From an uncultured Anaerolinea sp. (lineage in GTDB: Bacteria > Chloroflexota > Anaerolineae > Anaerolineales > Villigracilaceae), in the NCBI GenBank assembly GCA_964388215.1, contig CAYLZI010000001.1:6980-70979 (forward strand): a stretch of DNA of 64,000 bases, read 5' to 3'. The notes beneath the pieces are model-generated. The model had not been told where the DNA came from and searched no databases. It saw only the letters and a list, made by a program, of their open reading frames with translations. A program made the position numbers and the translations under genes. Positions 10,217 through 62,772 of the stretch are shown piece by piece. The number at the start of each line of letters is the position of its first letter. Position 1 is the stretch's first letter.

Positions 10217-10227
10217 CGTTTGTCATC

Positions 10228-11691: not shown

Positions 11692-11708
11692 GTTTGCTCC
11701 TCTTTCGT

Positions 11709-12041: not shown

Positions 12042-12057
12042 TATTCACCTCCTGGCT

Positions 12058-12351
12058 TTAATTAAACTTGACGCCCGCTTTGCCATCGGCAGCTTGCATA
12101 TCGGCGATAGCATGGCGGATATCGCTGGCAATTTCACGATATTTCTCGCTTAGTCTGCCTACGCGGTTAGAAAAGATACCCAATGCCATAACATATGTTT
12201 CCCCAGGCGCGCCTTGCAACGCACCGTTTTGCATTTGGGATGCGATTTTCTGGGCAGTGGAAGCAGATTGGGCCAGCCGGGCGGCAGCATTGTCGCATTG
12301 GCGCGCCATATCTTCCATGGCCGGGTAATTGGTACGGATAATATCACTCAT
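12058..12351 (-). CDS. WXG100-like small protein (97 aa), W replaced by L
   Basis: N-terminus MSDIIRTNYPAMEDMA is typical of the family. The central turn is ALQGAPGETY. AAAGGAG SD upstream. Confidence 0.65.
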   Translation of the reverse strand: MSDIIRTNYPAMEDMARQCDNAAARLAQSASTAQKIASQMQNGALQGAPGETYVMALGIFSNRVGRLSEKYREIASDIRHAIADMQAADGKAGVKFN

Positions 12352-12380
12352 TGTTATTTCTCCTTTCAGTTTTTTGCCGG

Positions 12381-12686
12381 TCAGGCCATGTTGGAGAAGT
12401 ACCCTTTGGTCTCTTCATCTGCTTGCTGAACAATTTGCATGATTTGTCCGGCAACGCTGGCAGCGACTTCAAGAGCAGCAATCATTTTTTGGGTGCGCGG
12501 GAGCGCAATGGTATTCATTTCTTCATAGAAGCGGTCAGCACCTTCACCAATCCACTGACTGCCATGCAGCGCGTCGGCCATCTGCTTCGTTTTTTGGTAC
12601 AGTTGTTGGATGTCGGCCTTTTCAGTTTCCAACATGCTGACGATGCTTTGCATTTCTTCATAGTTGACTTGAATCAAGTTAGACAT
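12381..12686 (-). CDS. WXG100 family protein (101 aa)
   Basis: MSNLIQVNYEEMQSI... with canonical central SQWIGEGADRFYEEM. AAGGAG SD upstream. Confidence 0.8.
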   Translation of the reverse strand: MSNLIQVNYEEMQSIVSMLETEKADIQQLYQKTKQMADALHGSQWIGEGADRFYEEMNTIALPRTQKMIAALEVAASVAGQIMQIVQQADEETKGYFSNMA

Positions 12687-12773
12687 TGTTTTTCACTCCT
12701 TGAGAAAAAGCGTGTGGTTCTACAAAACTGTGGATTAGTGCAAAGGTTTTATGATAGATAAATAACCACCTCC

Positions 12774-13664: not shown

Positions 13665-13676
13665 AGCAACTCCCTG

Positions 13677-26948: not shown

Positions 26949-28895
26949 TCAAATGAATTCTTCCAAATCGAACTCTTTCAGAATTGAAGGCGTTGGCGCG
27001 CCGCGCTCGTCCCAGCCGATGCGTTTGTAGTAAACCGGCAGCCAGGCGCGTAGTTCTTCAGGCGTCAGCCCCTTTCCGGCGATGGGTCCATCGGCAAGAT
27101 GGTGATAGGCGCGCGCCGAGAGGGTGTCATCAGCGGCGGTGAAACCTTCGCGCAGCAGGAACAGCCGACCCAGGTTGATGGAGCGCAGGCCGGTAGCGTT
27201 GATGTCATTGGCGCTGATTGGCTCGCCAAAGGCGGCGGAAAGCGCGTCCACCATGTGATGATATTCATACGGGTAGAAATGGCAAATGACCGCGCAGTCG
27301 AAGAAATTTTTGAAGGCAGTTTCGTAGTAGAAGCCCTCGATTTTGCGTTCCGAAATGCCCCACAAGGGCAGCGGGGCCGGAACGCCCATTTCCTTCAGCC
27401 GAGCGGCGATGTCGCCGCCGTCAAAGGTGGCAAAGGTGTCGTTCAGGTTGTGCATGTGGTCGGCGCCGGTGGCGGAGAGGGCATAGCCCATGGCCAGGGT
27501 GTGCTTGAGGCGCGGGTCGTGCAGGGGCAGTTCCTGTCCGCGCGCGACGGCCAGCATCTCCGCCGCGTTGCCGCCAAGTTGGGCGGCCATGCGCGCGCTG
27601 CCTTCGGCCATTTGGTTGCCAAGTCCTTCGCGCCTGGCAATCGAATGGATGCTTTCGATGAGGGAATGTCCGTCGCCGAAGCGCGGGCCGTCAACCAGGC
27701 CCTTTTCCGTTGCCTCCATCGCAAAGGCAATCGTGCCGCCGGTCGAGATGGTGTCCAACCCGTAGGCGGCGCATAGTTCGTTGGCTTTGGCAACCACAAC
27801 CGGGTCGTTGATTTTGCAGAGCGGGCCGAGCGCGCCCAGGCTTTCATATTCCGGGCCGCCGTATTGGGGCGCGATGGTCAAGTCGCCTGCGTGGGCAACG
27901 ACCAGTTTGCAGCGCACCGGACAGCGGCTGCAGGTGTCGCGGTCTTGTAAAATTTTCGGGAAGAAATGACTGGCATCTAGTTGCTCAATGCCCTCGAAAA
28001 CGCCGTCGCGGTAATTGTTGATGGCGGTTGCCCCGGCGTCGTGATTGAACTGCACCGAGCCGGAGGTGCCCGCCGCAATCGCCCAGCCCATCATGCCCTT
28101 GTAATTGGCGTTGACCCATTTCTGGACGGTCTGGAACAGGGCCTTGTTCGCCACGCCAATATTGGTCGAACCACGCGCGGCAATCGCCTTGAGATTTTTG
28201 CTGCCCATCACCGCGCCCATCCCTGAACGCCCGGCGGCGCGGTTGATATCGTGCATGACAGCGGCGAAGCGGGCGAGGTTTTCACCCGCCGGGCCAATCT
28301 GCGCTACGCGAACTTTCCCGCTCCGCTGCGCTACGGGGACTTTCCCGCTCCGCTGCGCTACGGGGACTTTTTCATCATCCAATTCATGCCGAATCATTTC
28401 CTGCGCATCGGTAGTCAACTTTCCCCACAGCAGAGCAGCGTCGCGGATTTCGACTGCCCCGTCTCGAATCCACACATAGACCGGCTTTTCAGCTTTGCCC
28501 TGAATAACCACCGCGTCATACCCGGCGCGTTTGAGTTCCGCGCCCCACCAGCCACCCGCCTCGCAACTGCCCAGCGCCCCCGTCAACGGGGATTTGCCGC
28601 CAACAGCGTGCCGCCCGGTTCCGGGCAGGGCCGTTCCGGTCAGCAGGCCGGGGGCGAAGATGAGCAGGTTTTCGGGGCCAAGCGGGTCGGCGTTGGCTGG
28701 CATTTCAGTCAGCAGATAATGCAGGATGAAGTTGCGCCCGCCAATGTATTTGCGATAAAACGACGCTTCCGGTTTGTCTACCCAAATTTTTCCGCTCGAT
28801 AAATCCACGCGCAAAATCTGCCCGGCGCAGGGGCTTTGCCCGGCGAGAAATTCGGGGTTGGGCTGGCTGAAAAAATAGATGGTGTTAGCGGGCAT
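26949..28895 (-). CDS. Aldehyde:ferredoxin oxidoreductase family (tungstopterin) enzyme
   Basis: Start trimmed to ATG 28895 (AGGAG 9 nt upstream). Motifs GQILRVDLSSGKI, IGPAGENLARFAAVM, GMGAVMGSKNLKAIA, GGPEYES and LDTISTGG. Confidence 0.9.
   Translation of the reverse strand: MPANTIYFFSQPNPEFLAGQSPCAGQILRVDLSSGKIWVDKPEASFYRKYIGGRNFILHYLLTEMPANADPLGPENLLIFAPGLLTGTALPGTGRHAVGGKSPLTGALGSCEAGGWWGAELKRAGYDAVVIQGKAEKPVYVWIRDGAVEIRDAALLWGKLTTDAQEMIRHELDDEKVPVAQRSGKVPVAQRSGKVRVAQIGPAGENLARFAAVMHDINRAAGRSGMGAVMGSKNLKAIAARGSTNIGVANKALFQTVQKWVNANYKGMMGWAIAAGTSGSVQFNHDAGATAINNYRDGVFEGIEQLDASHFFPKILQDRDTCSRCPVRCKLVVAHAGDLTIAPQYGGPEYESLGALGPLCKINDPVVVAKANELCAAYGLDTISTGGTIAFAMEATEKGLVDGPRFGDGHSLIESIHSIARREGLGNQMAEGSARMAAQLGGNAAEMLAVARGQELPLHDPRLKHTLAMGYALSATGADHMHNLNDTFATFDGGDIAARLKEMGVPAPLPLWGISERKIEGFYYETAFKNFFDCAVICHFYPYEYHHMVDALSAAFGEPISANDINATGLRSINLGRLFLLREGFTAADDTLSARAYHHLADGPIAGKGLTPEELRAWLPVYYKRIGWDERGAPTPSILKEFDLEEFI
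28301..28372. repeat. 27-nt tandem repeat (about 2.6 copies), family 2, in frame inside the AOR gene
   Basis: GCGCTACG(C/G)G(A/G)ACTTTCCCGCTCCGCT units, translated as KVPVAQRSG-KVPVAQRSG-KVRVAQ. Confidence 0.85.
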
Positions 28896-29187
28896 AAAAC
28901 GAGACTCCTGCAATCTGAAATAAAAAGCGAACATTATCCCCTGGTTGTAAAACATGGTTCAAGTCGCTGACCAGGCCGCTGCTCGTGCCCTGCGGCTTGA
29001 CCAGTGCAATGACGGCCCTGGGCAGGCGGATTCCCTCGGCTTCGAGCGCCTGGCGGATAGTTTGCCCGGCAGCGACAGGGATATTTTTTGTATCGCTGTC
29101 CGCGCCCCAAATTACCTGGCTGGTGGTTGCGTCGAAGCGGAGAATCGCTTGAGCAGGGTGCATTGAGTCTCTTGAAAAGCGCTTCAT
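28885..29187 (-). CDS. Small hypothetical protein, weakly ThiS/MoaD-like in layout
   Basis: The ORF overlaps the AOR start by 11 nt. No strong motif and no C-terminal GG. Start is ambiguous (29196, 29187 or 29163). Confidence 0.35.
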   Translation of the reverse strand: MKRFSRDSMHPAQAILRFDATTSQVIWGADSDTKNIPVAAGQTIRQALEAEGIRLPRAVIALVKPQGTSSGLVSDLNHVLQPGDNVRFLFQIAGVSFYAR

Positions 29188-29382: not shown

Positions 29383-30375
29383 TTACAGTCGTCCGCCCAT
29401 CGTCAGGGCCATCAGCGCCTTCTGGATGTGCATGCGGTTTTCGGCTTCGTCATAAATGACCGATTGCGGGCCATCCACCACCGCATCGGTGGCTTCGTAG
29501 CCGCGGTCAATCGGCATACAGTGCATGTAGATGGCTTCCTTCTTGGCCAGACCCATCATGCGCTCATCGCAAATCCAGTCTTTGTGCTGGTCGCACATGG
29601 CCTGCACTTCTTTCGGCTCTTCAGTGACCATGATGGGTCCCCAAGATTTAGCGTAGACGATGTCGGCGTCTTCGGCCCCGGTGTCCATATCATCTACAAT
29701 TTCAAATTTGGTGCCGTTTTCGGCGGCGTGTTTCTGGGCCAATTCCAGGCACTTGGGCATCATCTCGAATCCTTTGGGGTGCGAGAGGGTGACATCCATG
29801 CCAAAGCGGGTCATCAGCATAATAAGAGCCTGCGGCACCGAGAGCGGGCGGACGTACTTCGGCGCGTAAGTCCACGAGATGACAAATTTGCGCCCGCGCA
29901 GGTTGTCCCCAAACTTCTCGCGGATGGTCATCAGGTCGGCCATCGCCTGGCAGGGGTGGTCCACATCGTCCTGCATCGAGATGACCGGAATGTTCATGTA
30001 TTTTGCCAGTTCGTACTGATAGGCCTGCCCAATGCCGGTGCGGCAATCACGCAGCGCCAGTCCGTGACCGTAGCGTTCGAGCACCATGCCGGTATCTTTG
30101 GGGCTTTCGCCATGCCCAACCTGGGTGGCGGCGGGGGTCAGGTAAATGGCGTGGCCGCCGAGTTGGGCCATGCCGGCCTCGAAACTGTTGCGGGTGCGGG
30201 TCGATTCTTCGAAAAAGAGCATATAAAGAATGCGGCTGCGCAGGATGTGGTCGTGCTGTTCGCCAAAGGCAAAGCGGCGCTTGAGTTCATCGGCGGCGTC
30301 GAGCATGGCGGTCAGTTCGTCCACGCTCCAATCTTCAGTGGTGATAAAGTCTTTTCCGAACAGGGTGGTTTTCAT
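29383..30375 (-). CDS. YgeW-like carbamoyltransferase (ATCase/OTCase superfamily)
   Basis: STRTR and HPCQ motifs. LSVPQALIMLMTRFGMDVTLSHP, DADIVYAKSW, QHKDWICDE and YMHCMP closely track E. coli YgeW as I recall it. Confidence 0.8.
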   Translation of the reverse strand: MKTTLFGKDFITTEDWSVDELTAMLDAADELKRRFAFGEQHDHILRSRILYMLFFEESTRTRNSFEAGMAQLGGHAIYLTPAATQVGHGESPKDTGMVLERYGHGLALRDCRTGIGQAYQYELAKYMNIPVISMQDDVDHPCQAMADLMTIREKFGDNLRGRKFVISWTYAPKYVRPLSVPQALIMLMTRFGMDVTLSHPKGFEMMPKCLELAQKHAAENGTKFEIVDDMDTGAEDADIVYAKSWGPIMVTEEPKEVQAMCDQHKDWICDERMMGLAKKEAIYMHCMPIDRGYEATDAVVDGPQSVIYDEAENRMHIQKALMALTMGGRL

Positions 30376-30517: not shown

Positions 30518-31729
30518 TCATTTTTGATTTGCGTACATGAACGGGAACAGCGCATAAAACATGGCAGCCCGCTTCACTTTTTCGAGATTGACCTGGTCTT
30601 CCTGGGTGTGGACGTATTTCTCTTGCTGCGGCCCAAAGCCCAGGGTGGGGATTCCGGCGGCCCCGGCGGAATACGTTCCATCGGTGCTGAACTTCCAGAC
30701 AGCGACTTCAGCGGGCTTTTTCCACAAGGCTTGATAGGTGGCCTGTCCCGCTGCCAGCAGCGGGCTGTTTTCATCCAGCAGCCAGCCGGGGAAAAAGGCC
30801 TGGTCGTCGAGATTGAGTCCGGTATGGGCGCGGACGGCTTGAAACGGGATTTCGACCGTTGCTCCGAGCGGTTCGACCACCCGGAGAAGTGATTCCGTGA
30901 CCGAGGCGGGCGTCTCGCCCGGAACCAGCCGCCGGTCGAGGGCGATTTCGCACCAGCCCGGCACCGAGTTGGGGGTATGCGGCCCCAAAATCAGCGTGAC
31001 AACCTGATTCCCTTGCCCGAAGGTGGGGTCAACCGGCAGGCTGGCGTTCATCTTTTCGACTGCTTCGATGACGGGCAGCATTTTCAGGATTGCATTTTCG
31101 CCCAGGTTGGGCGTGGAGGCGTGGGCCGCCTTGCCTTTGGCGCGCACACGCACTTCGCAGCGCCCGCGATGACCGCGCCGCAGGGTCAGGTCGGTGGCTT
31201 CGGCCAGCAACACGGCGTCGGGGCGCAATCCGTCGCGCTCGACCAGTGAGCGCAGGGCAAAACCCTCGGCGTCTTCTTCGAGGGTCGCGCCCATCACCAC
31301 CACCGAACAGCCGGGGTCAATTCCCAACTGCTTGAGAATCGCCGCGCCGTAGACGATGGCCGCCACGCCCGCTTTGCAGTCGGAAGCGCCCAGACCGTAG
31401 AGCGTGCCGTCCACGATGACCGCGTCAAGGGGTGGGTAGGGCCATTCCTTTTCATCGGCGATTTCGTTGGTGTCGAGGTGGGCGTTGTAGAGCAGGACGG
31501 GTTTGCCTGCGCCGATTTGACCGAGGGCATTCCCGGCAGAGTCCATCCAGACCTTGTCACAGCCGATGGCGCGTAACTCGGCCAGGGTGCGCTCGACGGC
31601 CGGGCCTTCCTCGCCGGTGTAGGTGCGGATACGCACGATGTCCGCGAGAAATTTCACCATGTCCGGGAACAGGGTTTCGGCGGTTTGTTCAATTTGCTGG
31701 GCGAGTTTTTCCAAATCGTAATTTTGCAT
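30518..31729 (-). CDS. YgeY-like M20 family peptidase/deacylase
   Basis: Start trimmed to ATG 31729 (GGAG upstream), giving 403 aa. Motifs NAHLDT, GASDCKAG, LEEDAEG and WKFSTDGTYSAGAAGIPTLGFGP resemble E. coli YgeY as recalled. Confidence 0.8.
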   Translation of the reverse strand: MQNYDLEKLAQQIEQTAETLFPDMVKFLADIVRIRTYTGEEGPAVERTLAELRAIGCDKVWMDSAGNALGQIGAGKPVLLYNAHLDTNEIADEKEWPYPPLDAVIVDGTLYGLGASDCKAGVAAIVYGAAILKQLGIDPGCSVVVMGATLEEDAEGFALRSLVERDGLRPDAVLLAEATDLTLRRGHRGRCEVRVRAKGKAAHASTPNLGENAILKMLPVIEAVEKMNASLPVDPTFGQGNQVVTLILGPHTPNSVPGWCEIALDRRLVPGETPASVTESLLRVVEPLGATVEIPFQAVRAHTGLNLDDQAFFPGWLLDENSPLLAAGQATYQALWKKPAEVAVWKFSTDGTYSAGAAGIPTLGFGPQQEKYVHTQEDQVNLEKVKRAAMFYALFPFMYANQK

Positions 31730-31795
31730 ATTGCTCCGTACTGCAGCATTCATGCCGCAAACACCAGGCGACATAAATGTCGCGCTACAAGCCCG

Positions 31796-33869: not shown

Positions 33870-35231
33870 TTATGAGAGATAGGATTTCAGGTTGACCATT
33901 GGATATGTGACGCGCTCGCCATACGGGCGGCGCTCTGGCTTATACGTCGCGTCTATGCCCATTTTGTTCTGTACGCCGCGCATATCGGCGGTCGGGTCCA
34001 TTTCGTGGCCCTGCGCGCCGGGGACGAGGAAGGTGTCCTTGCCCCAATCCACGCGATTGGTCAGCGCCCACAGCACATCGGCGGGGTCGTAGATATTCAC
34101 ATCGGGGTCAACTATGATGACTTTGGCAATGTTGACGTGCGCGGTGAAAGCCGCCATGGCCGCGTTCTTGGGTTCGCCGGGGTTGGTCTTTGCCAGTTGG
34201 ACAATTGCCAAAAACCCATTGCCATAGGGCGGAATGTGCAGGGCGGTCACGTTGCGGCTGACGTGGCGCACAAAGCGCAGCAGCAGCGGCTCGCGCGGCA
34301 GGACGTTGCCGATGTAGATATGCTCATCCCAGCCGGGGACGATGGTCTGGTAAATCGGGTTATCGCGGAAGCAGATGGCGGTCACTTCAAACGTGGGCGA
34401 TTCCCACAACTCGCCGTAGTAGCCGTGAAATTCGGCCAGCGGCCCTTCGGCGTGACGGATGTGCGGCGGCAGGCAGCCTTCGATGACAATTTCACTGTAG
34501 AACGGCACGCGCACATCCACGGTCACGCCCTTGCAAGTTTTGACCGGTTCGCCGCGCAGCGCCCCGGCAATTGCCAGTTCGTCATCGTCATAACGCGCCC
34601 CGGCAGCAATCATAATGGCCGGGTCGAGGCCAATGGCAATGGCAATTTGGAGCGACTCATCTTTGGCCTGGTGATGTTTGTAAAACTGCATGACATGCCG
34701 CCACTCGTTGACATTGAACCCAAAGGTATGCGGGCCAAGAATCTGCATTCGGTTGTAAGAAAGGTTGCCGCGCCCTGAAACCGGGTCGGTACAGACCGTC
34801 ACGCCGCCGGTGATGAAGGGGCCGCCATCGTGTTCACCGTGCGTGGGGATGGGCAGTTGGTACAGGTTGATTTGGTCGCCAGTGATGATGTTCTGCTTCC
34901 AGGCGGAAGTCTCGCCCACCAACTGCGGCTGAATCCCGTTACCGATTTCGAGCGACTTGCCCATTTGGTTAGGAACTTCGCCTGTGGCGCATTGCAGTGC
35001 CAGCGCCGCGCTGGACGGGCTGACCACCGCGTTGGCAAAAACCGGCCAGGGGAGTGTATCCGCCGCGCGGGCGGGCTGCTCAAAAACGACAGGCCCTTGT
35101 CCCTGCCTGGCCAGGGTCGCGGCGACGTTGGCGAGTTCGTGTTCCAGGTGAACCGGCTTGCGGATGCGGGTCATCTGGCGGGCTTCTTCCAAAACTTCGA
35201 TGTAACTTCTCAGGTCATAAATACGGTTCAT
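33870..35231 (-). CDS. UbiD family (prFMN-dependent) decarboxylase
   Basis: 453 aa. Family-typical N-terminus [22 protein letters not shown], plus [15 protein letters not shown] and AIAIGLDP blocks. Confidence 0.8.
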
Positions 35232-35295: not shown

Positions 35296-36471
35296 TTATC
35301 GAATCGGATAACCACCCACTTCACGGGCGGTTTCGAGCATGGCGAGGTAATATTCCGGCACTACTCCCAGATGGATGGAATTGCTGGACGAAAGCAGGAA
35401 GCCTCCACCGGGCGCGGCGGCGCGGATGACGCGGGCGGTTTCTTCTTTGACCGCTTCCACCGGCCCATTTACCAGCACAGTCGAGCAATCCACGTTGCCA
35501 ATCAGCGTCAGGCGGTCGCCGTATTGCTTTTTGATGGCGGCGATGTCCATCCCGGCGCGAGGTTCGATGGACTGGAAGGCATCCACACCCGAATCAATCA
35601 TCCCTTCGAGCAGGCTGTTGACGTTGCCGTCGGTGTGTTTGACGTACACTCCGCCGTAGCGGTGACACAAGTCAGTAATTTGTTTGAGGCGCGGGAAGAC
35701 GAATTTGCGAAAATGGCGCGGCGAAAAGATGGGCGCGCGCGAAGCCGCCCAATCGTAACCGCCGTGCAGGCCGTCCACGCCGCGCTGGAGCAGGGCTTCG
35801 CCAAGCATGAGGGTGGTTTTTAACTGGACATCCAGGTAGCGTTCGATTAAATTTGGGGCTTGCACCAGGCCGATGAGGAAGGTCTCCGCCCAATCGTAGG
35901 TGGAACCGATATGCACATCCGCCGAACCGAGAATCATGCGCTCGTTTCCAAACTCGGTAAGGACGCGGTCAACGATGGAAAAATCCCAATCTTCGAGGCG
36001 TGGCTCGCTGGCTTCCATGATGGAGGTCACGCGCTCCAGCTCTTCCAGCCCGCCGCGCTTCAAACTGGAATCAATCTGGTCGTAGGTGTCGCTATCGGGG
36101 GCGTAACGGCATAGGCCCCAAACGCCGTTAGAATCCTCGAATCGCCAGGTGACTTCGTCCACCTGTTCGGGAACCAGCGGGTTGGCCGGGAAGGGGTCAC
36201 AGTCAACGAGGGGGAAAACATCCAGGTCGAGCGTCCGCCAAAGTTCGATGTCGTCAGTAGCGAGCTGTTCTCGATATTGCTTGAATTGGCCTGCCATCAG
36301 CGCCTGGTTTTGTTTGACGCCCCGCGAAAGCCCGCCGAAGCCACACAGGGTTTCGCGCCCCAACACATGAGCAGCGGTAGGGTTATCAATCGTCAGTTCA
36401 AAAACCGGGACGCGGTCTGCTTCCTGGTGGGCAAATGCCAGTTTGGCGCGTTCTTTGCCGAAGGCGTTCAT
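35296..36471 (-). CDS. Uroporphyrinogen decarboxylase (URO-D) fold family protein
   Basis: 391 aa. The C-terminal half (VYVKHTDGNV...GVDAFQSIEP...LIGNVDCSTVL...GGGFLLSSSNSI) matches the URO-D/MtaA-type layout. Confidence 0.7.
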   Translation of the reverse strand: MNAFGKERAKLAFAHQEADRVPVFELTIDNPTAAHVLGRETLCGFGGLSRGVKQNQALMAGQFKQYREQLATDDIELWRTLDLDVFPLVDCDPFPANPLVPEQVDEVTWRFEDSNGVWGLCRYAPDSDTYDQIDSSLKRGGLEELERVTSIMEASEPRLEDWDFSIVDRVLTEFGNERMILGSADVHIGSTYDWAETFLIGLVQAPNLIERYLDVQLKTTLMLGEALLQRGVDGLHGGYDWAASRAPIFSPRHFRKFVFPRLKQITDLCHRYGGVYVKHTDGNVNSLLEGMIDSGVDAFQSIEPRAGMDIAAIKKQYGDRLTLIGNVDCSTVLVNGPVEAVKEETARVIRAAAPGGGFLLSSSNSIHLGVVPEYYLAMLETAREVGGYPIR

Positions 36472-37757
36472 AAGTCCAATCCTGCCTTTTTTCGTAAAAT
36501 TTTTATTGCGCTTTGCGCTTCCTTGAGAATGGCTGCTTCATCGAGCATGATGAGTTTGCCCTCTTGCATGAGCCAGTCGCCGCCCACCATCAGGGCTTGC
36601 GCGTCGCTGGCGCGGGCGCATAAAGCCAGGGTCGAGTCAAGGTCATGCGCGGGGGCCGACCAGACCGAATCGAGGTTGACCAGGCACAGGTCGGCGGGCT
36701 GGCCGACGGTCAATCCGCTGCTTGTCGTTGCCATTTCCAAAGCCTGGCGCGGAGCAATGGCAGCGGCGTCCAAACTGGAAGCGCGCGCCAGCATGAGCGC
36801 CGTTTTCATGTTCTCGAAGCAATCCTGCGTGTCGTTGGAGGCCGGGCCGTCGGTGCCTAGCCGCAGGTTGATTCCTTTTCTGAGCATGGTCTTGACAGGC
36901 GCAATGCCCGAACCAAGCACCGCGTTGCTGACCGGGCAATGCACCACCGGCGCGCCGCGTTCGGTCAGTAAATCCATTTCGGCCTCCTCCACCCAGACAG
37001 CGTGGACGATTTGACAGCAAGGGTCGAGAATGCCCAGGCTTTCGAGCCAGGCCACCGGGCGCAGGCCGGTTTCCTTAAGGGTCATTTCCACTTCGTCAGC
37101 AGTTTCCGAGACGTGGACGTGGGTAAACGAGTCGAATTGGCGGGCGAGGGCGTGGGTCTTGACAAGGGTTTCCGCCGAGGCGCGCCAGGGAGTCAGCGGG
37201 CCGCTGGCAAACTTGACGAGTTCGGTTTCCTGCCCGAAGAAATATTCGAGTTCTTCCAGAATGGCTTGGGGCGCTTCGGCCCCGTTGCCCCGGTCTGACC
37301 AGGCGCGGGCAATGGTGACGCGCAGACCCGATTTTTTCGCGGCGCGGATAACGGCTTCGGTAAACCCTGGCGCGCGGGTGATTTTCTGGTGATCAACCAC
37401 CGTTCCGGCCCCGCTGCGAATGTTTTCGGCCAACCCAATCAGGGCGGCCAGTTCCAAAACTTCCTCCGACATAGCGTCTTGCAGCGGCCAGATGAGTTCC
37501 TTCAGCCAGCGCAAAAGCGGACGCCCGCCAGCCAACCCGCGCATGAAGGTTTGCGAAAGGTGGGTATGCCCATTGACCAGGGCGGGGAGGGCGGCCATGC
37601 CGCGAGCGTCAAAGCAGCGGCGGGGCCAAGTGTCCGCCCCAGCCGGCGGCGGAATTTCTCCAATCGCGGCGATGCGCCCATCTTGAATCAGGAGGTCGCC
37701 GGTTTGCCAGCCGCCGGGGACGAGGATGTGGGCGTTTGTGATTAATGTGTCAGGCAC
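36468..37757 (-). CDS. Amidohydrolase, TRZ/ATZ / nucleobase-deaminase type
   Basis: Motifs LVNGHTHLSQTFMRG (HxH), HVHVSET, VHAVW and LGTDGPASN. Confidence 0.85.
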   Translation of the reverse strand: MPDTLITNAHILVPGGWQTGDLLIQDGRIAAIGEIPPPAGADTWPRRCFDARGMAALPALVNGHTHLSQTFMRGLAGGRPLLRWLKELIWPLQDAMSEEVLELAALIGLAENIRSGAGTVVDHQKITRAPGFTEAVIRAAKKSGLRVTIARAWSDRGNGAEAPQAILEELEYFFGQETELVKFASGPLTPWRASAETLVKTHALARQFDSFTHVHVSETADEVEMTLKETGLRPVAWLESLGILDPCCQIVHAVWVEEAEMDLLTERGAPVVHCPVSNAVLGSGIAPVKTMLRKGINLRLGTDGPASNDTQDCFENMKTALMLARASSLDAAAIAPRQALEMATTSSGLTVGQPADLCLVNLDSVWSAPAHDLDSTLALCARASDAQALMVGGDWLMQEGKLIMLDEAAILKEAQSAIKILRKKAGLDL

Positions 37758-38892
37758 GAGTCAACTCATCGAAGGCGCGTTCGGCTTCTTCCTGGGTCAT
37801 GTCGTCAGTGATTTCAAAAGCAAAGCCTTTGCCGCCAAGTTCGTTGATGATTTTTCGCGCGCCGCTGAGACTGGTATAGACCTGGCACAATTTCCCGCCC
37901 TCGCGGATGCGCCGGAGCAGGTCGAGCCATTCCTCGGCAGGAGGCGCTCCGGCACCGGCAATCCATTGGATGCCGCGCAGTTTTTCGAGCGACAGAAGTT
38001 GGTCGAGGTGGCGAATCTGACCCTTGCCATCCAGATGATAGAAGGGATAGGCAATCTCGTCACAACATTCTTGCAAATCTGGCATAACAAAGCGTTTGAA
38101 CATGGCGGGCGAAATCATGTAGGCAAAGTCGCTTTGCAGCATGTACATTCCCCGCTGGAAATCGCGGGATAAGGGCTGAGGCGCCCACAGGCAAGACCAA
38201 CCGCTGCTGCCCATACCGGCCTGGTCGAGCAGGCGGTGCTGGATTTTGTAACATTCCAGCCAGGCGCGCCGAATCTGACCACATAAGCGTTCCACTTCGG
38301 CGGGTTGGTCGAGCATTTCCACCGCCAGCCGCTGCGCCCCAACCAACGAGGCCAAAACGTCGAGGTTGCCGCCGAGGTCGGTGATGCCGTAGGTGAGTTG
38401 ATTGCCCCAGCGTTCGATTCCGGATTCAGTCAGGGTGTAGATGCGCCGCCAGAGCGGGTGTTCCAGGTTCAGGGTCAGGTCAATCTCTTTGAGCGGAATC
38501 TTCTCCCAGGATACGCCGTCTGCATTGGTTGAAGGAGAGAACCAGGTGCTGCCATCCACAAATTCGTATTCCGAGCCGAGCAAGGCGGCCAACACGCCGG
38601 GGCCAATGTTGATGTAGAACTTTGGCAGGCCGTCGCCAAGATAATAGGCGGCTTCGATGATGTCCTGGTAGCGGTTCAGCACTTCTTCGACCGGCATACC
38701 GAGCGGATAAAAGCCAGCAAAAGTCCAATTGGGCTTGGAACCGGCGTCGAGCCGGGTTTTGTGCCAGCCAAATTGACGATATCCCTCGCAAACCACCATT
38801 GGCCGTTGGAGCGAGCCATCCCACCAGGCCTGCCAGTTGACGCGGGCTTGCTGCCATTCTTTTTGTCCAAATTCAAGGTTGAGGGGTTTCAT
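37750..38892 (-). CDS. Hypothetical protein, possibly a distant URO-D-fold relative
   Basis: 380 aa. Translationally coupled on both sides (4- and 8-nt overlaps). The C-terminal FYHLDGKGQIRHLDQLL...GIQWIAGAG layout is reminiscent of URO-D family C-termini. No firm motif. Confidence 0.55.
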   Translation of the reverse strand: MKPLNLEFGQKEWQQARVNWQAWWDGSLQRPMVVCEGYRQFGWHKTRLDAGSKPNWTFAGFYPLGMPVEEVLNRYQDIIEAAYYLGDGLPKFYINIGPGVLAALLGSEYEFVDGSTWFSPSTNADGVSWEKIPLKEIDLTLNLEHPLWRRIYTLTESGIERWGNQLTYGITDLGGNLDVLASLVGAQRLAVEMLDQPAEVERLCGQIRRAWLECYKIQHRLLDQAGMGSSGWSCLWAPQPLSRDFQRGMYMLQSDFAYMISPAMFKRFVMPDLQECCDEIAYPFYHLDGKGQIRHLDQLLSLEKLRGIQWIAGAGAPPAEEWLDLLRRIREGGKLCQVYTSLSGARKIINELGGKGFAFEITDDMTQEEAERAFDELTRA

Positions 38893-41690
38893 CGCAGTTT
38901 TTTTCCTATCGCAAGCGGGATGATACGCTGGCGTTTGCCGGTGGCCTGGAAAACAGCGTTGGCAATGGCGGGCGCAATGGCTATCAGGGCCGGTTCGGCC
39001 AGGCCTTTGGCACCAAACGGCCCTTCAGGCTGGATGGTGTCGAGGTAGGTCAGGTCAACTTCGGGCATGTCTAGGGCGGTGGGCATGGTGTACTCGCGCA
39101 GGCTCAGTTTGTCGGGGCAGCCATTGGTGAAGGTGAAATCTTCGGTGACGGCGTAGCCCAAACCCTGGGCGATGCCGCCAAGCATTTGTCCCTTTGCGCC
39201 GCCGGGGAAGATGATTTTGCCTCCGTCATGCGCCGCCCAGACTTTGATGACCTTCAGGTCGCCGGTGCGCGTGTTGACCTCGACTTCGGCCACCTGCGCG
39301 CCATAGCAGTAGGCGTAGTAGGGGACGCCGGTGCCAGTTTTAAAGTCCCAGTGGATTTCGGGCAGCTGCCAATAGCCCTGAGCCGAAAGCGGCAGGCTCA
39401 TCTCATGGGCATGGTCAACGACCTGCTCGAAAGCGGCCTCGTTTTCGCTGGCGCTGATGTAATGCCCCCCCAGGCAGTGAATTTCTTCGGGAGCGCAGCC
39501 GAGCAAATCGGCGGCAGCCAGCAGCAGGGTCTGGCGCAGTTTTTCAGATGTCACTTTGACGGCGTTGCCGCCAACGAAGGTGGCGCGCGAGGCAACCGTA
39601 GGGCCAGATTCGATGGCGGTCTGGGTATCAGGACGCAGCATTTTGATGCGGTCGGGCGTGATTCCAAGCACTTCAGCGGCCACCAGGGTAAAGATGGTGC
39701 GGCTGCCTTGCCCGTAGTCGGTCATACCATGTTGCAGGGTCAGGGTGTAGTCAGATTCGATGCGCAGGGTGGCGTTGGCGTAATCCAGCCCTTCGCCGCC
39801 GAGTCCACTGCCGTGGAAGTAGCAAGCCACCCCCAACCCGCGCCGAATTTCCTGTTCGGCGGGCTGGGCCGCGAATTGGGCGCGTTTCTTATCCCAACCC
39901 GAGCGCTGGCGCACCCATTCGAGGCTGCGAGTCAGGTAGACATCATGTTCGATGGTGTTGCCGGTAAAGGCGCAGTCGCCTTTATGCAGGACGTTTTGCA
40001 GGCGAAAGTCAATTGGGTCGCGCCCCACCTGGGCGGCCAGTTCGTCAATCGCCATTTCGATGGCGGCGCAGGCCTGCGGGTTGCCAAATCCGCGAAATGC
40101 GCCAGAGTAGCCGTTGTTGGTGTAGACGATGTCAGTATCGACGGTGGCGGCTTCGTAACGGTAGCATCCGGCAGCGTGCATGGTAGCGCGCCAGGCTGAA
40201 AGGGTAGACATCGAAGCAAATGCCCCGCTATCAGAGAGCAGGTCGGCGTGGGCGGCGCGCAGGCGTCCATCAGAATCGGCGCCCAGACGCAGGCGAATTT
40301 CCATCCACTCACGCTTGTAGGAGGCCGCCATAGATTCGCTGCGGTCGAGCACCAGCCGCACTGGACGCCCAGAAAGCAGCGCCAGCTTACCGACCTGGGC
40401 CGAAATCTGGTAGCCGATGTCGTCCTTGCCGCCGAAAGAACCGCCCACCGGTGGCTGGATGATGCGGACTTTGTCCTGCGGGAGGCCGAGCAGGGAGGCA
40501 GCGTTGTTGCGGTTAACAAAGGGGCTTTGGTCGTTGGCGTAAATGGTGATACTGCCATCCACGCCGGGGACAGCCAGCGCGGCTTCGGTCTCGACGTAGG
40601 CGTGTTCCTGGTGTTGGAAGGTGTAGGTCTGGTCGAGTTTTTGGGGACATTCGGCCAGGATGGGCTGCGGGTCGCCGTTGCGGACGATGTGGCGTTCACA
40701 CAGGTTGCTGCCCTGCCCTGAATTTTCGGGGATGACGACCCCAGCGGAAAGCGCCGTATGCGGGTCGCTGACGACTGGCAGGGGTTCAAGCTCAAGTTGA
40801 ATGGCGCGGACGCCCTCCAGCGCGGCGGCTTCGCTTTCGGCGGCGACAACGGCAACCGCCTCGCCGACATGGCGCGTTTTCTCGTGCGCCACCACAAAAG
40901 CGTCGCGCACCGGCCACCCAAACAGGCCGTTATTGACAAAATCGGCGCTGGTGATGACGGCCTTGACGCCGGGAATCGCGCGCGCCGGGGCCACATCCAG
41001 CCTTTTGATGCGGGCATGAGGCAACGGGCTGCGCAGGGTTTTGGCGTATAACATGCCGGGGAATTTCATGTCGCCGATGTATTTTGCCTTGCCGAGCACT
41101 TTTTCGTAGCCATCGGCTGCCGGGGCTTTGGGGTTGCCGATATAGCGGTAGGTGCTTTCTGCGGGTGGGGAATCAGGGTGGACACGCAGGTCCACCCCTA
41201 CGCTGCGGCTGTGGGCGACTTCTTCAAGGGCGTCCACAATCTGCTGGTAGCCGGTACAGCGGCACAGGACGGGATGGATGGCTACCTTGATGTCGTCGCG
41301 GGCCGGGGCCGGGTTGTGGCGCAGCAGGGCTTCACCCGCCAGCACCATAGCCGGGATGCAGAACCCGCACTGGGTGGTGCCGTGACGCAGGAAAGCCTGC
41401 TGGATGTCGCCGGGGCCGCCGTTCGGGGCGTGAACGCCTTCGATGGTGGTGACAGATTTCCCAGCCACGTTAACGGCTTTGGTCTGGCAAGACTTAATCA
41501 GTTGGTCGTCCACGATGACCGAACACGCGCCACAATCGCCACACTCGCAGCCGATTTTCGTGCCGGTTAACCCGAGTTGGTTGCGCAGCAGGTTTGCCAG
41601 GCTGGTTTCCGAATCGACCTGGCAGGTGACGGATTCCCCGTTAAGGGTGAAAGTTAACTGTTGCATGGTTGTCGAGCCTTGTCGAGACAT
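38889..41690 (-). CDS. XdhD/MOP-like molybdenum hydroxylase: fused 2x[2Fe-2S] and molybdopterin subunits, no FAD domain
   Basis: 933 aa. N-terminal GCECGDCGACSV and CRCTGYQQIV, then xanthine dehydrogenase-family Moco domains (GGSFGGKDD, GFGNPQ). No CoxM/XdhB-type FAD subunit in the window. Confidence 0.9.
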   Translation of the reverse strand: MSRQGSTTMQQLTFTLNGESVTCQVDSETSLANLLRNQLGLTGTKIGCECGDCGACSVIVDDQLIKSCQTKAVNVAGKSVTTIEGVHAPNGGPGDIQQAFLRHGTTQCGFCIPAMVLAGEALLRHNPAPARDDIKVAIHPVLCRCTGYQQIVDALEEVAHSRSVGVDLRVHPDSPPAESTYRYIGNPKAPAADGYEKVLGKAKYIGDMKFPGMLYAKTLRSPLPHARIKRLDVAPARAIPGVKAVITSADFVNNGLFGWPVRDAFVVAHEKTRHVGEAVAVVAAESEAAALEGVRAIQLELEPLPVVSDPHTALSAGVVIPENSGQGSNLCERHIVRNGDPQPILAECPQKLDQTYTFQHQEHAYVETEAALAVPGVDGSITIYANDQSPFVNRNNAASLLGLPQDKVRIIQPPVGGSFGGKDDIGYQISAQVGKLALLSGRPVRLVLDRSESMAASYKREWMEIRLRLGADSDGRLRAAHADLLSDSGAFASMSTLSAWRATMHAAGCYRYEAATVDTDIVYTNNGYSGAFRGFGNPQACAAIEMAIDELAAQVGRDPIDFRLQNVLHKGDCAFTGNTIEHDVYLTRSLEWVRQRSGWDKKRAQFAAQPAEQEIRRGLGVACYFHGSGLGGEGLDYANATLRIESDYTLTLQHGMTDYGQGSRTIFTLVAAEVLGITPDRIKMLRPDTQTAIESGPTVASRATFVGGNAVKVTSEKLRQTLLLAAADLLGCAPEEIHCLGGHYISASENEAAFEQVVDHAHEMSLPLSAQGYWQLPEIHWDFKTGTGVPYYAYCYGAQVAEVEVNTRTGDLKVIKVWAAHDGGKIIFPGGAKGQMLGGIAQGLGYAVTEDFTFTNGCPDKLSLREYTMPTALDMPEVDLTYLDTIQPEGPFGAKGLAEPALIAIAPAIANAVFQATGKRQRIIPLAIGKKLR

Positions 41691-47645: not shown

Positions 47646-48989
47646 TTAGGCCGCCCACAGCCGTTTGGCGGCGGCGCGCGCGTTTGCTTTGAGTTCAGTC
47701 CAGTCTACATTCAACACCTGTCCATCACGCATGAGCGTTTTGCCCGCCACAACGGTGGCCTTTACATCGGAGGCGTGACAGTAGAGCAGGAGTTGGTCGT
47801 ACAGGTTATGCTCTTCGAGCGGGGTGGGTAAATCGGGGACGATGAGCTGGAAATCGGCCTGCCAGCCGGGTTCCAGCCGCCCAACCCCTTCCAGGCTGAT
47901 GGCTTTTGCGCCGCCCTCGGTCGCCATATACCAGACTTCGTGAGCGGGCATGACCTGCGGGTTGAGATGAGCGGCCTTGTGAATTAAGAATGCTCCGCGC
48001 ATGACCTCGAAGAAATCGTGGATGTAGCCGTCGCTGCCCAGCCCGACGGTAATACCGGCCTGCAACAGTTGCGGCACAGGGGCAATCCCGCCGCCGACTT
48101 CGCAGTTCGAGAGCGGCATGTGGGTAGCGCTGACCCCTCGCGCGGCCATCAACTCAATTTCATCGGGCGAGAGTTGCACGCATTGCGAGGCCAACATCCC
48201 ACTCCGCTGCGCTTCGGGGACTTTGCCCGGCCCCAGTACGCCCAGGCTGTCATAATAGAACATCGGGCGCATTCCAAATTTCTCGAGGCAGTATTTCGGC
48301 TCATAGACGCCCTCCGAAACATGGGCATGAGTCAGCGCGCCACGTTTCAAAGCCATCTCGAATGCCTGGCGGATGAAATCGGCATTGCAGGTGAAGGTGG
48401 TGTGGAAACACATCATCCCGGTCAGCAGCGAACCGACTGGACGCGAATCGATAAATTCAGCGTTTTCGCGCAGGCCGAGTTGGGCATTTGCTTCCGAAAC
48501 GCGCTGGGTGGCCTCGAAGGACAGGATTCCGCGCAGGCCGCGTTTTTCGAGCAGATTGGCCTGGGCCTTCAAGATTCCCGGCAGGGCGTTGGGGGCTTCC
48601 TGGCAGTCGTAAAAGGAGGTGATTCCGCTCTGTACCATGCGCGCGGTCTGAATGTCGGTGGCAGCGCAAATCATCTCGATATCGAGGCGGTTTTCGATGC
48701 GAGGCCACCAGAATTCTTCAAGGAAGTCCCAAAAGCCGATGGGGACTGATTGCATGGGAATCCCATGCGCCAGGACTCCATACAGGTGGGTGTGGGCGTC
48801 CACGAAACCGGGGGCCAGCACCCGTCCGGGCGCGTCCCAGACTTCATCGTCGGGGTAGTGCTGGCGCAGGTCGGCGTGGGGGGCCACGTCGCTGACGCGG
48901 TCAGATTCAACGCGAATCCCCCAGCCCTTGCGCGGGGACTCACGGGGGGAGGTGATTACCCACTCGGGCAGGACAATTAAATTTGGCAT
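47646..48989 (-). CDS. SsnA-like amidohydrolase
   Basis: Start trimmed to ATG 48989. Motifs GFVDAHTHLY, FWWPRIENRLD...SGITSFYDCQEAP...LRGILSFEATQR and GSDGYIHD track E. coli SsnA as recalled. Contains a 9-codon family 2 insertion. Confidence 0.8.
   Translation of the reverse strand: MPNLIVLPEWVITSPRESPRKGWGIRVESDRVSDVAPHADLRQHYPDDEVWDAPGRVLAPGFVDAHTHLYGVLAHGIPMQSVPIGFWDFLEEFWWPRIENRLDIEMICAATDIQTARMVQSGITSFYDCQEAPNALPGILKAQANLLEKRGLRGILSFEATQRVSEANAQLGLRENAEFIDSRPVGSLLTGMMCFHTTFTCNADFIRQAFEMALKRGALTHAHVSEGVYEPKYCLEKFGMRPMFYYDSLGVLGPGKVPEAQRSGMLASQCVQLSPDEIELMAARGVSATHMPLSNCEVGGGIAPVPQLLQAGITVGLGSDGYIHDFFEVMRGAFLIHKAAHLNPQVMPAHEVWYMATEGGAKAISLEGVGRLEPGWQADFQLIVPDLPTPLEEHNLYDQLLLYCHASDVKATVVAGKTLMRDGQVLNVDWTELKANARAAAKRLWAA
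48198..48228. repeat. Family 2 element, single copy, in frame inside the SsnA-like gene
   Basis: CCCACTCCGCTGCGCTTCGGGGACTTTGCCC versus CCCGCTCCGCTGCGCTACGGGGACTTTCCCG in the AOR gene, 28 of 31 identical. Translated KVPEAQRSG. Confidence 0.8.
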
Positions 48990-50133
48990 GAAAATTGCCT
49001 CGCTTCTTGATACTTGCGTCCAAATTTGCAAAAGGAGTGCGCGGGGCCAGGTTGTTGCCCTCGCGCAGGACAAAACGCCCGCCCTCGCAGATACCTGAGT
49101 TCAGGATGCGCCGGGTTTCCTCGCGGACGGCATCGGGGGTTCCGTTGAGCAGCAGCATGATGTTCGGGCCGCCGTGAATCAGCACTTCCGGACCAAGTTC
49201 CTGCCTGAGTTTTCCGAAGTCAACCGGGAAGCCGGTTTCGAATTCCCGGGCGTTGATTTCATCGCGCAGGGTTTTGAAGTGGCGGGTCGCGTCGCCGCAT
49301 AAGTGAACTTTGACGCGGCTTGGAGAACCGAGCCCAACGATGAGCTTGCGATAAACCGGGACGAGGAATTCCCGCAGCATTTTAGTCGAAATCAACTGAA
49401 TAGAATCGTCGGCAAAGAATAGTTCCTGCCCGGAGGCCGACAAACCGAAAAACTGCATGTGGGCGCGGATGCGCTGGATGGTGCCTTCGGTGATGTAATC
49501 GAGCAGGTCGCGGGCGTATTGCGGGTCTTCGTACAGGTCGGTCAGGAAATCGCCGCCGCGCAGGGCAATCGCCAGCGTAAACGGGCCAGAAGTCCAGATG
49601 CCGAAGGGCGCCATGCGGATGGGGCTTCCATGATAGGTTGGATTCCGATGGATGCGCTCGCTCATCTCGTCGAAGATTTGATGGGCTTTGGCATACCAGC
49701 CGCCTTTGAGCGGGTCGGGCAGTCCCAAATCTTTGAAAGCATTTTTGTGTTCACCGTCGAAAATAGGTTTGGTATCTGGAACCTGGTTGGGGAGAAATAC
49801 CACCGGAGCGCCGAAATAGGCAGCTTCGTCGTAGTTCTGCAAATCAACCTTGGCGAGGAACTCATCCGGCAACCCGATGGGGTCGTCGCAATAGGGGGCA
49901 ATCTTCTCGACGCGCCAGGCCTGGCTGCGCAACTGGAAACCGAGCATGGTCGCGGCCTCGGTCGAGTAAGACTCAAAAGTGACCGCTTCGCCAGGGTTCA
50001 GGTCGTCGTTGAAGATGAAGAACTGGGTCGCTGTACCTAACTGTACCGGCGGGCGTATCGGCTGCCCAGCACGGAAGGCTTCCAAAATGGCTCTGGATTC
50101 TTCATTGTGCTTTGCGTTCTCTGCAATGTACAT
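48940..50133 (-). CDS. URO-D fold family protein (paralogue)
   Basis: Start trimmed to ATG 50133, because the longer ORF overlaps the regulator gene. Motifs VKVHLCGDATRHF, LIHGGPNIMLL and GGRFVLREGNNL. Its 3' end overlaps the next gene by 50 nt. Confidence 0.7.
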   Translation of the reverse strand: MYIAENAKHNEESRAILEAFRAGQPIRPPVQLGTATQFFIFNDDLNPGEAVTFESYSTEAATMLGFQLRSQAWRVEKIAPYCDDPIGLPDEFLAKVDLQNYDEAAYFGAPVVFLPNQVPDTKPIFDGEHKNAFKDLGLPDPLKGGWYAKAHQIFDEMSERIHRNPTYHGSPIRMAPFGIWTSGPFTLAIALRGGDFLTDLYEDPQYARDLLDYITEGTIQRIRAHMQFFGLSASGQELFFADDSIQLISTKMLREFLVPVYRKLIVGLGSPSRVKVHLCGDATRHFKTLRDEINAREFETGFPVDFGKLRQELGPEVLIHGGPNIMLLLNGTPDAVREETRRILNSGICEGGRFVLREGNNLAPRTPFANLDASIKKRGNFHAKFNCPARVGNHLPP

Positions 50134-50158
50134 AGTCCTGTGAATACCTTTTGATGGT

Positions 50159-50710
50159 TTAGAACACCGGCGGGGTGATAACTGAAATCCAGCGCGTGCC
50201 GCACTCACAAGCGCAGCGGATTTCGAGCAGTTGAGCGCCGTTAAAGTAGACAGAGTCGCCCGCTTCAAGGGTATATCGCCCGTCATCCAAGCCGACAATG
50301 AGCGAGCCTTCCAAGACAAAAATCATTTCTTCGGTTTCGACACTCAGGCGGCGGGCGATGTTCTCGCTGTTGTATTTGATATGCCCAATGATGGATTCAA
50401 ATTTACCAGTCAGGTCAGGAGTCAGCAGTTCGTAAGAGACACGTTCGTCATCCAGGTCTATCATTGGGCGGTTATCGGCGCGCACAACGGGCAATTCGGA
50501 GTGGGGTTCAGTGAGAAAATACATCATGGGAACGTTGAGCGCGTCTGAAATTTTTTGCAGCGAAGCAAGCGAAGCGTTGGTGACGCCGCGTTCAAGCTGG
50601 CTAAGAAAAGAGGCCGTCAAGTCAGTTTTTTCGGCCAGCTCGCGCAATGAAAGCCCCAGAATAGCGCGCCGACGGTTAAGCCGCTTTCCAATGACAAGCA
50701 TATCAGTCAT
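50159..50710 (-). CDS. XRE-family HTH regulator with C-terminal cupin domain
   Basis: HTH LSLRELAEKTDLTASFLSQLERG. Cupin IFVLEGSLIVGLDDGRYTLEAGDSVYF. First gene of the co-directional island. Confidence 0.85.
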   Translation of the reverse strand: MTDMLVIGKRLNRRRAILGLSLRELAEKTDLTASFLSQLERGVTNASLASLQKISDALNVPMMYFLTEPHSELPVVRADNRPMIDLDDERVSYELLTPDLTGKFESIIGHIKYNSENIARRLSVETEEMIFVLEGSLIVGLDDGRYTLEAGDSVYFNGAQLLEIRCACECGTRWISVITPPVF

Positions 50711-61548: not shown

Positions 61549-62613
61549 TTACCGTACAACGTCAATTCCTGCGCCTTCGGCAACCTCGCCCACCACCCAA
61601 ATCGGCTGATTCAATTCACGCGCGCGTTTCTCAAAGAGAGAGAGTTTCTCGGCTGAAACGGAAAGCAACAGCCCGCCGCTGGTTTGGGCATCGAACAGGA
61701 GCATTTGTTCCATTTCGCTGATTCCTTCGTCAAAATGGACGTATTCGCCATAAAACAGGCGATTGTCTGCCGAGCCGCCGGGGAAAATCCATTGTTCGGC
61801 ATATTTGCGGGCGCAGGAAATGAATGGAATTTTGTCAAATTCGAGGCGGAAGCGGGACCCCGAAGCGTTAGACATCTCCCATCCATGCCCGAGCAGGCTG
61901 AAGCCGGTAATATCGGTTCCGGCGCGGATTTCAAACTCATTCGCCAATTGCCCGGCCTTTGCGTTGAGGCTGCTCATCCAGCCGGTGGCCTCGTTCACAT
62001 CCTCCGGCGCGGCCACTCCGCGCTTGAGGGCAGTGGTCGTCACGCCAAAACCGAGCGGTTTGGTCAATATTAGAAAGTCGCCAGGTTTTGCGCCGCCTTT
62101 GGTCATCATTTTTTGCGGATGAACAAAACCAAGCGCCACCAGCCCAAATTTCGGTTCTTTATCTTGAACCGTGTGCCCGCCCGCCACCACCACGCCCGCT
62201 TCGCGGCATTTTTCCGCGCCGCCGCGCAAAATTTCACTGGCAAATTCGGTAGGCAAATCGGGCGGCAGGGCGGCAATGTTGAGAGCCAGGAAGGGCTGCC
62301 CGCCCATGGCGTAAATATCTGAAAGCGAGTTGGCTGCCGCAATCGCGCCGTATTCGTAGGGCGAATCGACCACTGGAGTAAAGAAATCGGTCGTCACCAC
62401 CAGGGCGCGCGCGTCATCCAGCCGCCAGACCGCCGCATCGTCGGGGCCAGCCAGCCCAACCAGCAAATCCGGGTACTCGCCCGGCTGGAACAAATTAGAG
62501 ACAGGGCGCAGAACCTGCGCCAGCGTTTCCGCATTAAGTTTAGATGCTCAACCAGCGCAGCTGGAAAGCGTCGTAAGGCGGATTTGACGCCCAGAAGTGG
62601 CATTTTCATTCAT
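61549..62613 (-). CDS. selD: Selenide, water dikinase (selenophosphate synthetase) with in-frame UGA (Sec) at codon 22
   Basis: Tracked ORF 61549-62493 (...LLVGLAGPDDAAVWRL, TTDFFTPVVD, SDIYAMGG) lacks the N-terminus. The same frame upstream reads MNENATSGRQIRLTTLSSCAG-TGA-ASKLNAETLAQVLRPVSN from ATG 62613. The TGA (62548-62550) aligns with the Cys/Sec of the GAGCGCK motif. Confidence 0.85.
62505..62521 (-). promoter_or_regulatory. Candidate SECIS stem-loop for selD
   Basis: Minus strand reads GGCGCAG-GUU-CUGCGCC (7-bp perfect stem), starting 26 nt downstream of the UGA. Confidence 0.5.
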
Positions 62614-62772
62614 TGATAAACTCCAAAGCGATATCAGGTTTTTATTTTACTCCAGCAAACCGGCTGACCGATTACTTTTTCTCGAATCGATAGGCCTTGA
62701 CCTGCGCCTTTTCCAACGTCACCAGCCCGGCAGAGATGCGCGGGGCAACGATACCGAGCAGGTTTACTGGCA

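Follow-up and report, generated by a model that had tools for sequence, protein, structure and literature searches.

A probable selenocysteine-type selD gene with a putative intragenic SECIS hairpin in an uncultured member of the Anaerolineales

Among bacterial selenoprotein families, that of SelD, the selenophosphate synthetase (selenide,water dikinase), ranks second in how widely it is distributed, so the gene considered here adds to a known kind. It lies on the minus strand of a 64,000-nucleotide (nt) stretch of DNA from an uncultured Anaerolinea sp. (contig CAYLZI010000001.1 of assembly GCA_964388215.1, positions 6,980 to 70,979; hereafter the window), and its reading frame is crossed by a UGA codon that very probably specifies selenocysteine (Sec). 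Sec-containing SelD proteins occur in Haemophilus influenzae, Aquifex aeolicus, many Deltaproteobacteria, and Clostridia; these resemble the window product in belonging to the same enzyme family and in carrying Sec at the same loop position, and their genes have an intragenic bacterial selenocysteine insertion sequence (bSECIS) after the UGA, as appears to be the case here. The existence of such proteins is textbook knowledge (PMC1794560, PMC13188914). The window gene differs from them in its lineage, the uncultured Anaerolineales of the Chloroflexota, and in the layout of its recoding region, where 33 nt separate the UGA from the loop of the putative SECIS and a small second hairpin occupies the spacer.

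The SelD of Escherichia coli (structure 3u0o) is close in length and sequence to the window product (347 versus 354 amino acids, aligned over residues 9-348, E = 2e-68, with the catalytic loop aligned), but it has a cysteine, Cys17 (TGC/TGT), at the catalytic position, its gene is without a SECIS, and its motif reads GAG-C-GCK against SSCAG-U-ASK in the window. The SECIS of E. coli fdhF, which is experimentally defined, is like the window hairpin (hairpin 2, 62505..62521, minus strand) in being a stem-loop inside the coding sequence (CDS) shortly after a Sec UGA, and both have in common the apical core GCAGGU..CUGC (GCAGGUCUGC in E. coli fdhF and GCAGGUUCUGC in the window), with G-U opening each loop. 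In the K-12 genome the fdhF element reads UGA-N11-GGUUGCAGGUCUGCACC, a minimal hairpin 11 nt past the UGA with a bulged U, whereas hairpin 2 begins exactly 26 nt past the UGA, has a perfect stem of 7 base pairs (bp) with no bulge, and is predicted to bind the Sec-specific factor SelB.

Gene model, protein identity and conservation of the UGA codon

The full-length selD CDS spans 61549..62613 (minus strand) and comprises 354 codons including the putative Sec22, a model based on the sequence and its translation, on a profile match that starts at residue 12, and on end-to-end alignment with known SelD structures. It begins at an ATG (62611..62613) preceded, across a 7-nt spacer, by the Shine-Dalgarno sequence GGAG (62621..62624), which is read directly from the DNA, and it ends at a TAA (61549..61551); the TGA at 62550-62548, codon 22, is the only in-frame stop between them. 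Conceptual translation gives MNENATSGRQIRLTTLSSCAG before this stop and ASKLNAETLAQVLRPVSN after it (the downstream part is also written ASKLNAETLAQVLRPVSNLF). The 21 N-terminal residues are conserved in relatives as the pattern MxExxxSGRQIRLTxLSxCAG, which supports the ATG as the true start. The open reading frame (ORF) in the mechanically generated list (61549..62493, minus strand) covers 314 amino acids from a TTG at 62493, and the public gene call for the identical sequence, P0001, covers 305 from a TTG at 62466, so both models start within the SelD protein. The first-pass annotation of the window had drawn this conclusion for the listed ORF, extending its frame upstream to ATG 62613, and had expected gene callers to truncate the gene; P0001 and its relatives bear this out, as nearly all of the closest relatives in the homolog table (P0001-P0120) are called at 282-336 amino acids against about 354 for the full protein, from inconsistent internal start codons. 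Among them, P0015 (304 amino acids) carries the NCBI name SelD despite its N-terminal truncation. The positions first proposed for the ATG (62613), the TGA (62548-62550), and the hairpin (62505-62521), with a gap of 26 nt between the last two, were all reproduced from the sequence. An overlapping ORF of 71 amino acids in another frame (62394..62609, minus strand), first described as a frame artefact, proved to be one, because its frame is open in 0/117 relatives.

With the UGA filled in, the 354-residue product scores 356.5 bits against the SelD equivalog model TIGR00476 (cutoff 125) and 336.4 bits against a second SelD equivalog model, NF002098 (cutoff 299), and the profile match begins upstream of the UGA. 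P0001, all listed homologs, and an ortholog, L129, have precomputed assignments to PF00586 and PF02769 (AIR-synthase-related N and C domains). The alignment of the product with the solved SelD structures of A. aeolicus (2yye, the top match in the PDB, E = 1.4e-69) and E. coli (3u0o) runs from end to end. On this basis the gene is assigned as selD, in agreement with the name it was first given. The UGA falls opposite E. coli Cys17 in the motif SHGAGCGCK (query ...sscagCaskl... against ...shgagCgcki... in the 3u0o alignment), Lys25 falls opposite Lys20, and the corresponding position of the A. aeolicus protein, whose wild-type residue is Sec, is also aligned with the UGA. Likewise, 12 full-length relatives with 67-72% identity have Cys opposite the UGA (LSSCAG-C-ASKLNAETL), and the earlier placement of this codon on the Cys/Sec position of the motif is therefore upheld by both alignments. 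By alignment, the UGA-encoded residue 22 sits in the glycine-rich, selenium-binding N-terminal loop SSCAG-U-ASK, and the window product is predicted to synthesize selenophosphate from selenide in a reaction dependent on adenosine triphosphate.

The UGA codon is deeply conserved. A scan of species-representative genomes gave 80 related loci, almost all in metagenome-assembled genomes (MAGs) of Anaerolineae/Chloroflexota and with 50-88% protein identity, and a scan of metagenomes seeded with a Cys-type protein gave 44. TGA occupies the Sec codon in 80/80 genomic loci, with coding conserved on both sides, and in 38 of the 44 metagenomic loci against 6 with TGC/TGT, although the seed was of the Cys type; in total, it is kept in 118/124 related loci and the reading frame is conserved across it. 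The ortholog L129 (GCA_041301925.1, JBGLNI01, on a 4.44-Mb contig, 80% identical) has the same ATG, Shine-Dalgarno sequence (GGAG-N5-ATG), TGA, and hairpins. Otherwise, TGA is an ordinary stop codon in the window, where it closes 21 of the 57 long ORFs, and the window genes are intact under translation table 11. A scan of TGA-joined ORFs for other selenoprotein genes in the window, which was not exhaustive, returned 125 mostly spurious candidates, none of them convincing on inspection.

Some of the related loci have an unusual genomic context. The MAG CAWAAC01 contains two Sec-type selD copies, both with TGA, on contigs 10517 (L045) and 23805 (L050), and these could be a paralog pair or the product of a mixed bin. 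Anaerolineae-like Sec-type selD genes are also found in MAGs labelled Syntrophothermus (L052), Planctomycetota (L070), and Spirochaetaceae (L077), and a further locus, L068, whose SelD shares 50% identity with that of the Anaerolineae type, comes from a MAG labelled Alphaproteobacteria. Horizontal transfer or mis-binning could account for these four odd labels.

Hairpin 2 and its loss in Cys-type relatives

Hairpin 2 has the sequence GGCGCAG-GUU-CUGCGCC, with its loop at 62512-62514, and was characterized by folding, covariation, and synonymous constraint. Published bSECIS elements are described by a loop of 3-9 nt, a stem of 4-16 bp, a distance of 16-37 nt from UGA to loop, and a minimum free energy of -7.5 kcal/mol or lower, together with a G in the first two loop positions according to the pattern N1-G-[G/U]-N-N2 (PMC13188914). 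Hairpin 2 agrees with 4/4 of the consensus criteria, having a 3-nt GUU loop closed as G-GUU-C, a 7-bp stem, 33 nt between UGA and loop, and a folding energy of -12.1 kcal/mol. Taken alone, this energy is only moderately unusual (z = -3.1; 4/200 shuffled sequences fold equally well). Among the Sec-type sequences, 101/119 agree with all four criteria and have a perfect stem, 95 of these at 32-33 nt from the UGA, and most of the remainder retain hairpin 2 with a bulge, such as the bulged A or U in L096 and L100.

Covariation was assessed by explicit pair counting on an ungapped alignment of 81 sequences, which replaced RNAalifold. In this alignment, 93.3% of the cells at hairpin 2 are paired, against 25-60% in slid controls, and double-sided changes occur at 5/7 pairs (19 cells). 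The value observed is attained by 0/500 shuffles, so that the comparative evidence places hairpin 2 far outside what chance would give. In one compensatory variant, GACGCAG...CUGCGUC, an A-U pair replaces G-C, and 7/7 sequences with ACG in this alignment carry CGT; other compensatory stems are AGCGCAG...CUGCGCU, GGCGCAA...UUGCGCC, GGCGCG...CGCGCC, and GUCGCAG...CUGCGAC. Synonymous sites are constrained in the same region. Across 118 Sec-type sequences, the entropy at the third position of the four stem codons is 0.14, 0.21, 0.32, and 0.07, compared with 1.60 at the Val codon of the loop and 1.97 at the Pro codon bordering the stem, the Pro value being like those of flanking four-fold sites, and the third position of the stem Arg codon is only ever C or T, each of which pairs with G31. 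Lying within the CDS, hairpin 2 also dictates both the peptide LAQVLRP and the codons used for it.

The comparative set comprised 119 Sec-type and 21 Cys-type sequences. In sister Anaerolineae, Cys-type SelD is represented within proteins P0039-P0096 and by loci L082-L084 and L123; the representatives compared with the window product (P0039, P0061, L082-L084) are 67-72% identical to it and have the motif LSSCAG-C-ASKL in common with it, but TGC/TGT replaces the TGA, the hairpin is gone, and LG[KR]ILAP stands where Sec-type loci have LAQVLRP. The mean folding energy at the columns of hairpin 2 is -2.75 kcal/mol in Cys-type against -10.5 kcal/mol in Sec-type sequences. One Cys-type locus, L082, keeps a shifted remnant hairpin, CGCUGGG-GAAAAU-CCUGGCG. 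A neighbour-joining tree was built from 126 sequences, with distant Cys-type SelD proteins as the outgroup. In it, the close Cys-type sequences (15/15) group into a single clade, the sister of the clade of the window, and this pair is nested under 15 successive sister groups consisting entirely of Sec-type sequences. The nesting indicates that Sec is ancestral here and that Cys is a single derived replacement, in line with published work reporting that conversions in SelD run mainly from Sec to Cys (PMC1794560). Agreement with the consensus, covariation, synonymous-site constraint, and loss in Cys-type genes support the view, put forward in the first-pass annotation, that hairpin 2 behaves as a putative bacterial SECIS.

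Selenocysteine insertion and competing explanations

From these observations, we consider it very probable that the window contains a genuine Sec-type selD in which SelB binds hairpin 2 and the UGA is decoded as the catalytic Sec22. Translation would begin at ATG 62613, and the ribosome would not terminate at the UGA (62550-62548). SelB carrying guanosine triphosphate and Sec-tRNA(Sec) would be tethered to the mRNA by hairpin 2 (62521-62505), whose loop, 33 nt past the UGA, would present its opening G-U, and SelB would deliver Sec as residue 22, the equivalent of E. coli Cys17. As SelD makes the selenium donor required for Sec-tRNA(Sec), a Sec-type SelD would make its own synthesis subject to a positive feedback that depends on selenium, a loop that has long been discussed for Sec-type SelD.

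Several results weigh against Sec insertion. The single-sequence folding z-score is modest when context is included (-1.7 for 64 nt), and the 26-nt spacer exceeds the 11 nt of E. coli fdhF, though the distance is inside the published range. Rfam gave 0 matches, both for the whole window at the gathering threshold and for a local segment of 251 nt at E <= 10, and RNAalifold returned an empty consensus on the 81-sequence alignment. Neither of these two nulls bears on the conclusion; bacterial SECIS elements are described in the literature as too heterogeneous for one model, and a match in Rfam is not a defining feature of them. With respect to the decoding machinery, no tRNA-Sec, nor a tRNA of any other type, was found in the 64-kb window, and tblastn searches of the window seeded with the E. 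coli, L068, and L069 proteins detected no selA or selB. The presence of selA, selB, and selC elsewhere in this genome is therefore something we infer, as the first-pass annotation did. Linkage of the machinery to selD at the same locus was seen in two distant relatives only (L068 and L069, 50-53% identity). L068 has a compact selC(-)-selD(Sec)-selA-selB cluster at 9783-14379 (selA 579.6 bits, selB 308.6 bits), and it alone had a tRNA-Sec in a scan of the flanks of 80 relatives, while in L069 (Chloroflexota) a selB gene (270.7 bits, cutoff 242.25) lies 5 kb from a Sec-type selD. A SelB homolog search found the protein to be abundant in Chloroflexota, with no copy linked to the genomes of the closest selD loci. 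Selenoproteins of Chloroflexi were already known in 2006.

Explanations without Sec were weighed against the same evidence. If the UGA were a true stop, the 21 upstream codons would be a remnant and a truncated SelD, or nothing, would be made from an internal start; gene callers give this very model (300-321 amino acids), and an internal TTG is available at 62493. We find such a pseudogene or functional truncation barely credible, however, since a decaying remnant could not sustain the conservation of the TGA and the upstream 21 codons over 118 loci down to 50% identity, the truncated product would be without the catalytic Sec/Cys and Lys of the N-terminal loop, a good Shine-Dalgarno sequence precedes ATG 62613, and internal starts are not conserved, as the called lengths of 282-336 amino acids reflect. 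The probability of a sequencing or assembly error, or of a reassigned code that reads UGA as sense genome-wide, is negligible: nothing beyond the single in-frame TGA speaks for either, the same TGA recurs in 118 independently assembled loci, and TGA closes long ORFs in the window, whose genes are intact under table 11. The conservation of the TGA, together with its ordinary use as a stop, excludes a sequencing error, a pseudogene of recent origin, and a reassigned code. Another possibility is that a near-cognate tRNA inserts a standard amino acid, such as Cys, Trp, or Arg, and that the hairpin is a general enhancer of read-through. A conserved UGA and stem-loop in selenophosphate synthetase genes have been reported in animals unable to make selenoproteins (hymenopteran SPS1-UGA, with no Sec machinery; PMC4561486), and the failure to find this machinery in the window would fit such a case. 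We nonetheless regard read-through without Sec as highly improbable, because hairpin 2 fits the SelB-type bSECIS criteria and has its apical core in common with the fdhF SECIS, because Sec machinery stands beside Sec-type selD in L068 (selC, selA, selB) and L069 (selB), and because SelB is common in Chloroflexota. To our knowledge, moreover, efficient Sec-independent read-through of UGA of this kind has not been established in bacteria.

A separate question is which structure SelB would recognize. The spacer contains hairpin 1 (62523..62532, minus strand), GCG-GAAA-CGC, with a folding energy of -3.9 kcal/mol and its loop 18 nt past the UGA, which was identified by folding and by nucleotide-level constraint; in the subtype of the window, 57/57 sequences use ACG for its Thr codon and 57/58 use GCG for the Ala codon that partners it. 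Other clades have a spacer hairpin in a shifted register (AGCGC-UGAA-GCGCU and GGGCC-CUGA-GGCCC; alignment A2, columns 13-31), and in a divergent clade (L065, L067, L074, L075, L079) an upstream 8-bp stem has a GUC or AUC loop 17 nt past the UGA and hairpin 2 has decayed or carries a bulge. The variation in register rules out hairpin 1 as a helix conserved in one fixed form, yet the constraint within the subtype of the window is real. It is conceivable that SelB binds hairpin 1 instead of hairpin 2, or that both form a composite SECIS, given that the loop of hairpin 1 starts with G, lies within the 16-37 nt range, and is under nucleotide-level constraint, and that the divergent clade combines a strong upstream hairpin with a deteriorated hairpin 2. 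This is improbable for the window, where hairpin 1 has 3 bp and falls under the 4-bp minimum and short of the -7.5 kcal/mol threshold, its register shifts between clades, and hairpin 2 is nearly invariant, has a loop opening with G-U, and is similar to the SECIS of fdhF. A broader proposal, which we offer tentatively and consider rather doubtful, is that the recoding signal as a whole is composite, consisting of a register-shifting hairpin 1 and a SelB-type hairpin 2 unusually far (33 nt) from the UGA, with the SECIS relocated in the sister clade. Hairpin 1 might then shorten the effective distance or pause the ribosome, and the functional SECIS may have migrated upstream in the divergent sister clade, to the 8-bp stem with the GUC loop 17 nt from the UGA. 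If true, this would be a documented case of SECIS relocation inside one orthologous gene.

Genomic neighbourhood and implications

Other genes of the window (all on the minus strand) resemble markers of the selenium-cofactor trait linked to SelD. Of these, the only one to score above its NCBIfam cutoffs, and above both of them, is a YgeY-family 'selenium metabolism-linked hydrolase' (30518-31774; 367 > 321 and 342.8 > 321.5). The best model for a molybdenum hydroxylase of the xanthine dehydrogenase family with 933 amino acids (38889-41690) is that of Se-dependent xanthine dehydrogenase, TIGR03311, at 570 bits, which is below the cutoff of 830, and two SsnA-like amidohydrolases (36468-37757 and 47646-49073) and a carbamoyltransferase (29383-30375) are also present. 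YqeB and YqeC, the markers that define the Se-dependent molybdenum hydroxylase trait, were not found among window ORFs of at least 180 amino acids. The window further encodes a set of anaerobe-type enzymes (26949-28955, 33870-35231, 35296-36471, and 48940-50319), comprising a tungsten-type aldehyde:ferredoxin oxidoreductase, a decarboxylase of the UbiD family, and two homologs of URO-D/MtaA-like methyltransferases whose N-terminal regions are long and without assignment. An FtsK/SpoIIIE-type ATPase of 1512 amino acids (5678-10216) has matches to EssC and EccC, both models of type VII secretion, and passes the EccCb domain model (368.6 > 346.55); the flanking ORFs 10228-11340 and 12774-15929 are without family assignment.

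None of these findings on selD changes current understanding. Their practical value lies in the correction of annotation, because public calls for the clade are truncated (about 305 amino acids): the true gene has 354 codons with Sec22, and public predictions for it and for almost all close relatives are without the catalytic residue. With the call corrected, the organism can be recognized as one that probably decodes Sec and uses selenium. For the family, this set of genes illustrates how an intragenic SECIS can freeze codon choice and the encoded peptide (LAQVLRP), with the constraint relaxing after a single Sec-to-Cys conversion, and it illustrates Sec as the ancestral state of SelD in much of the Anaerolineae.

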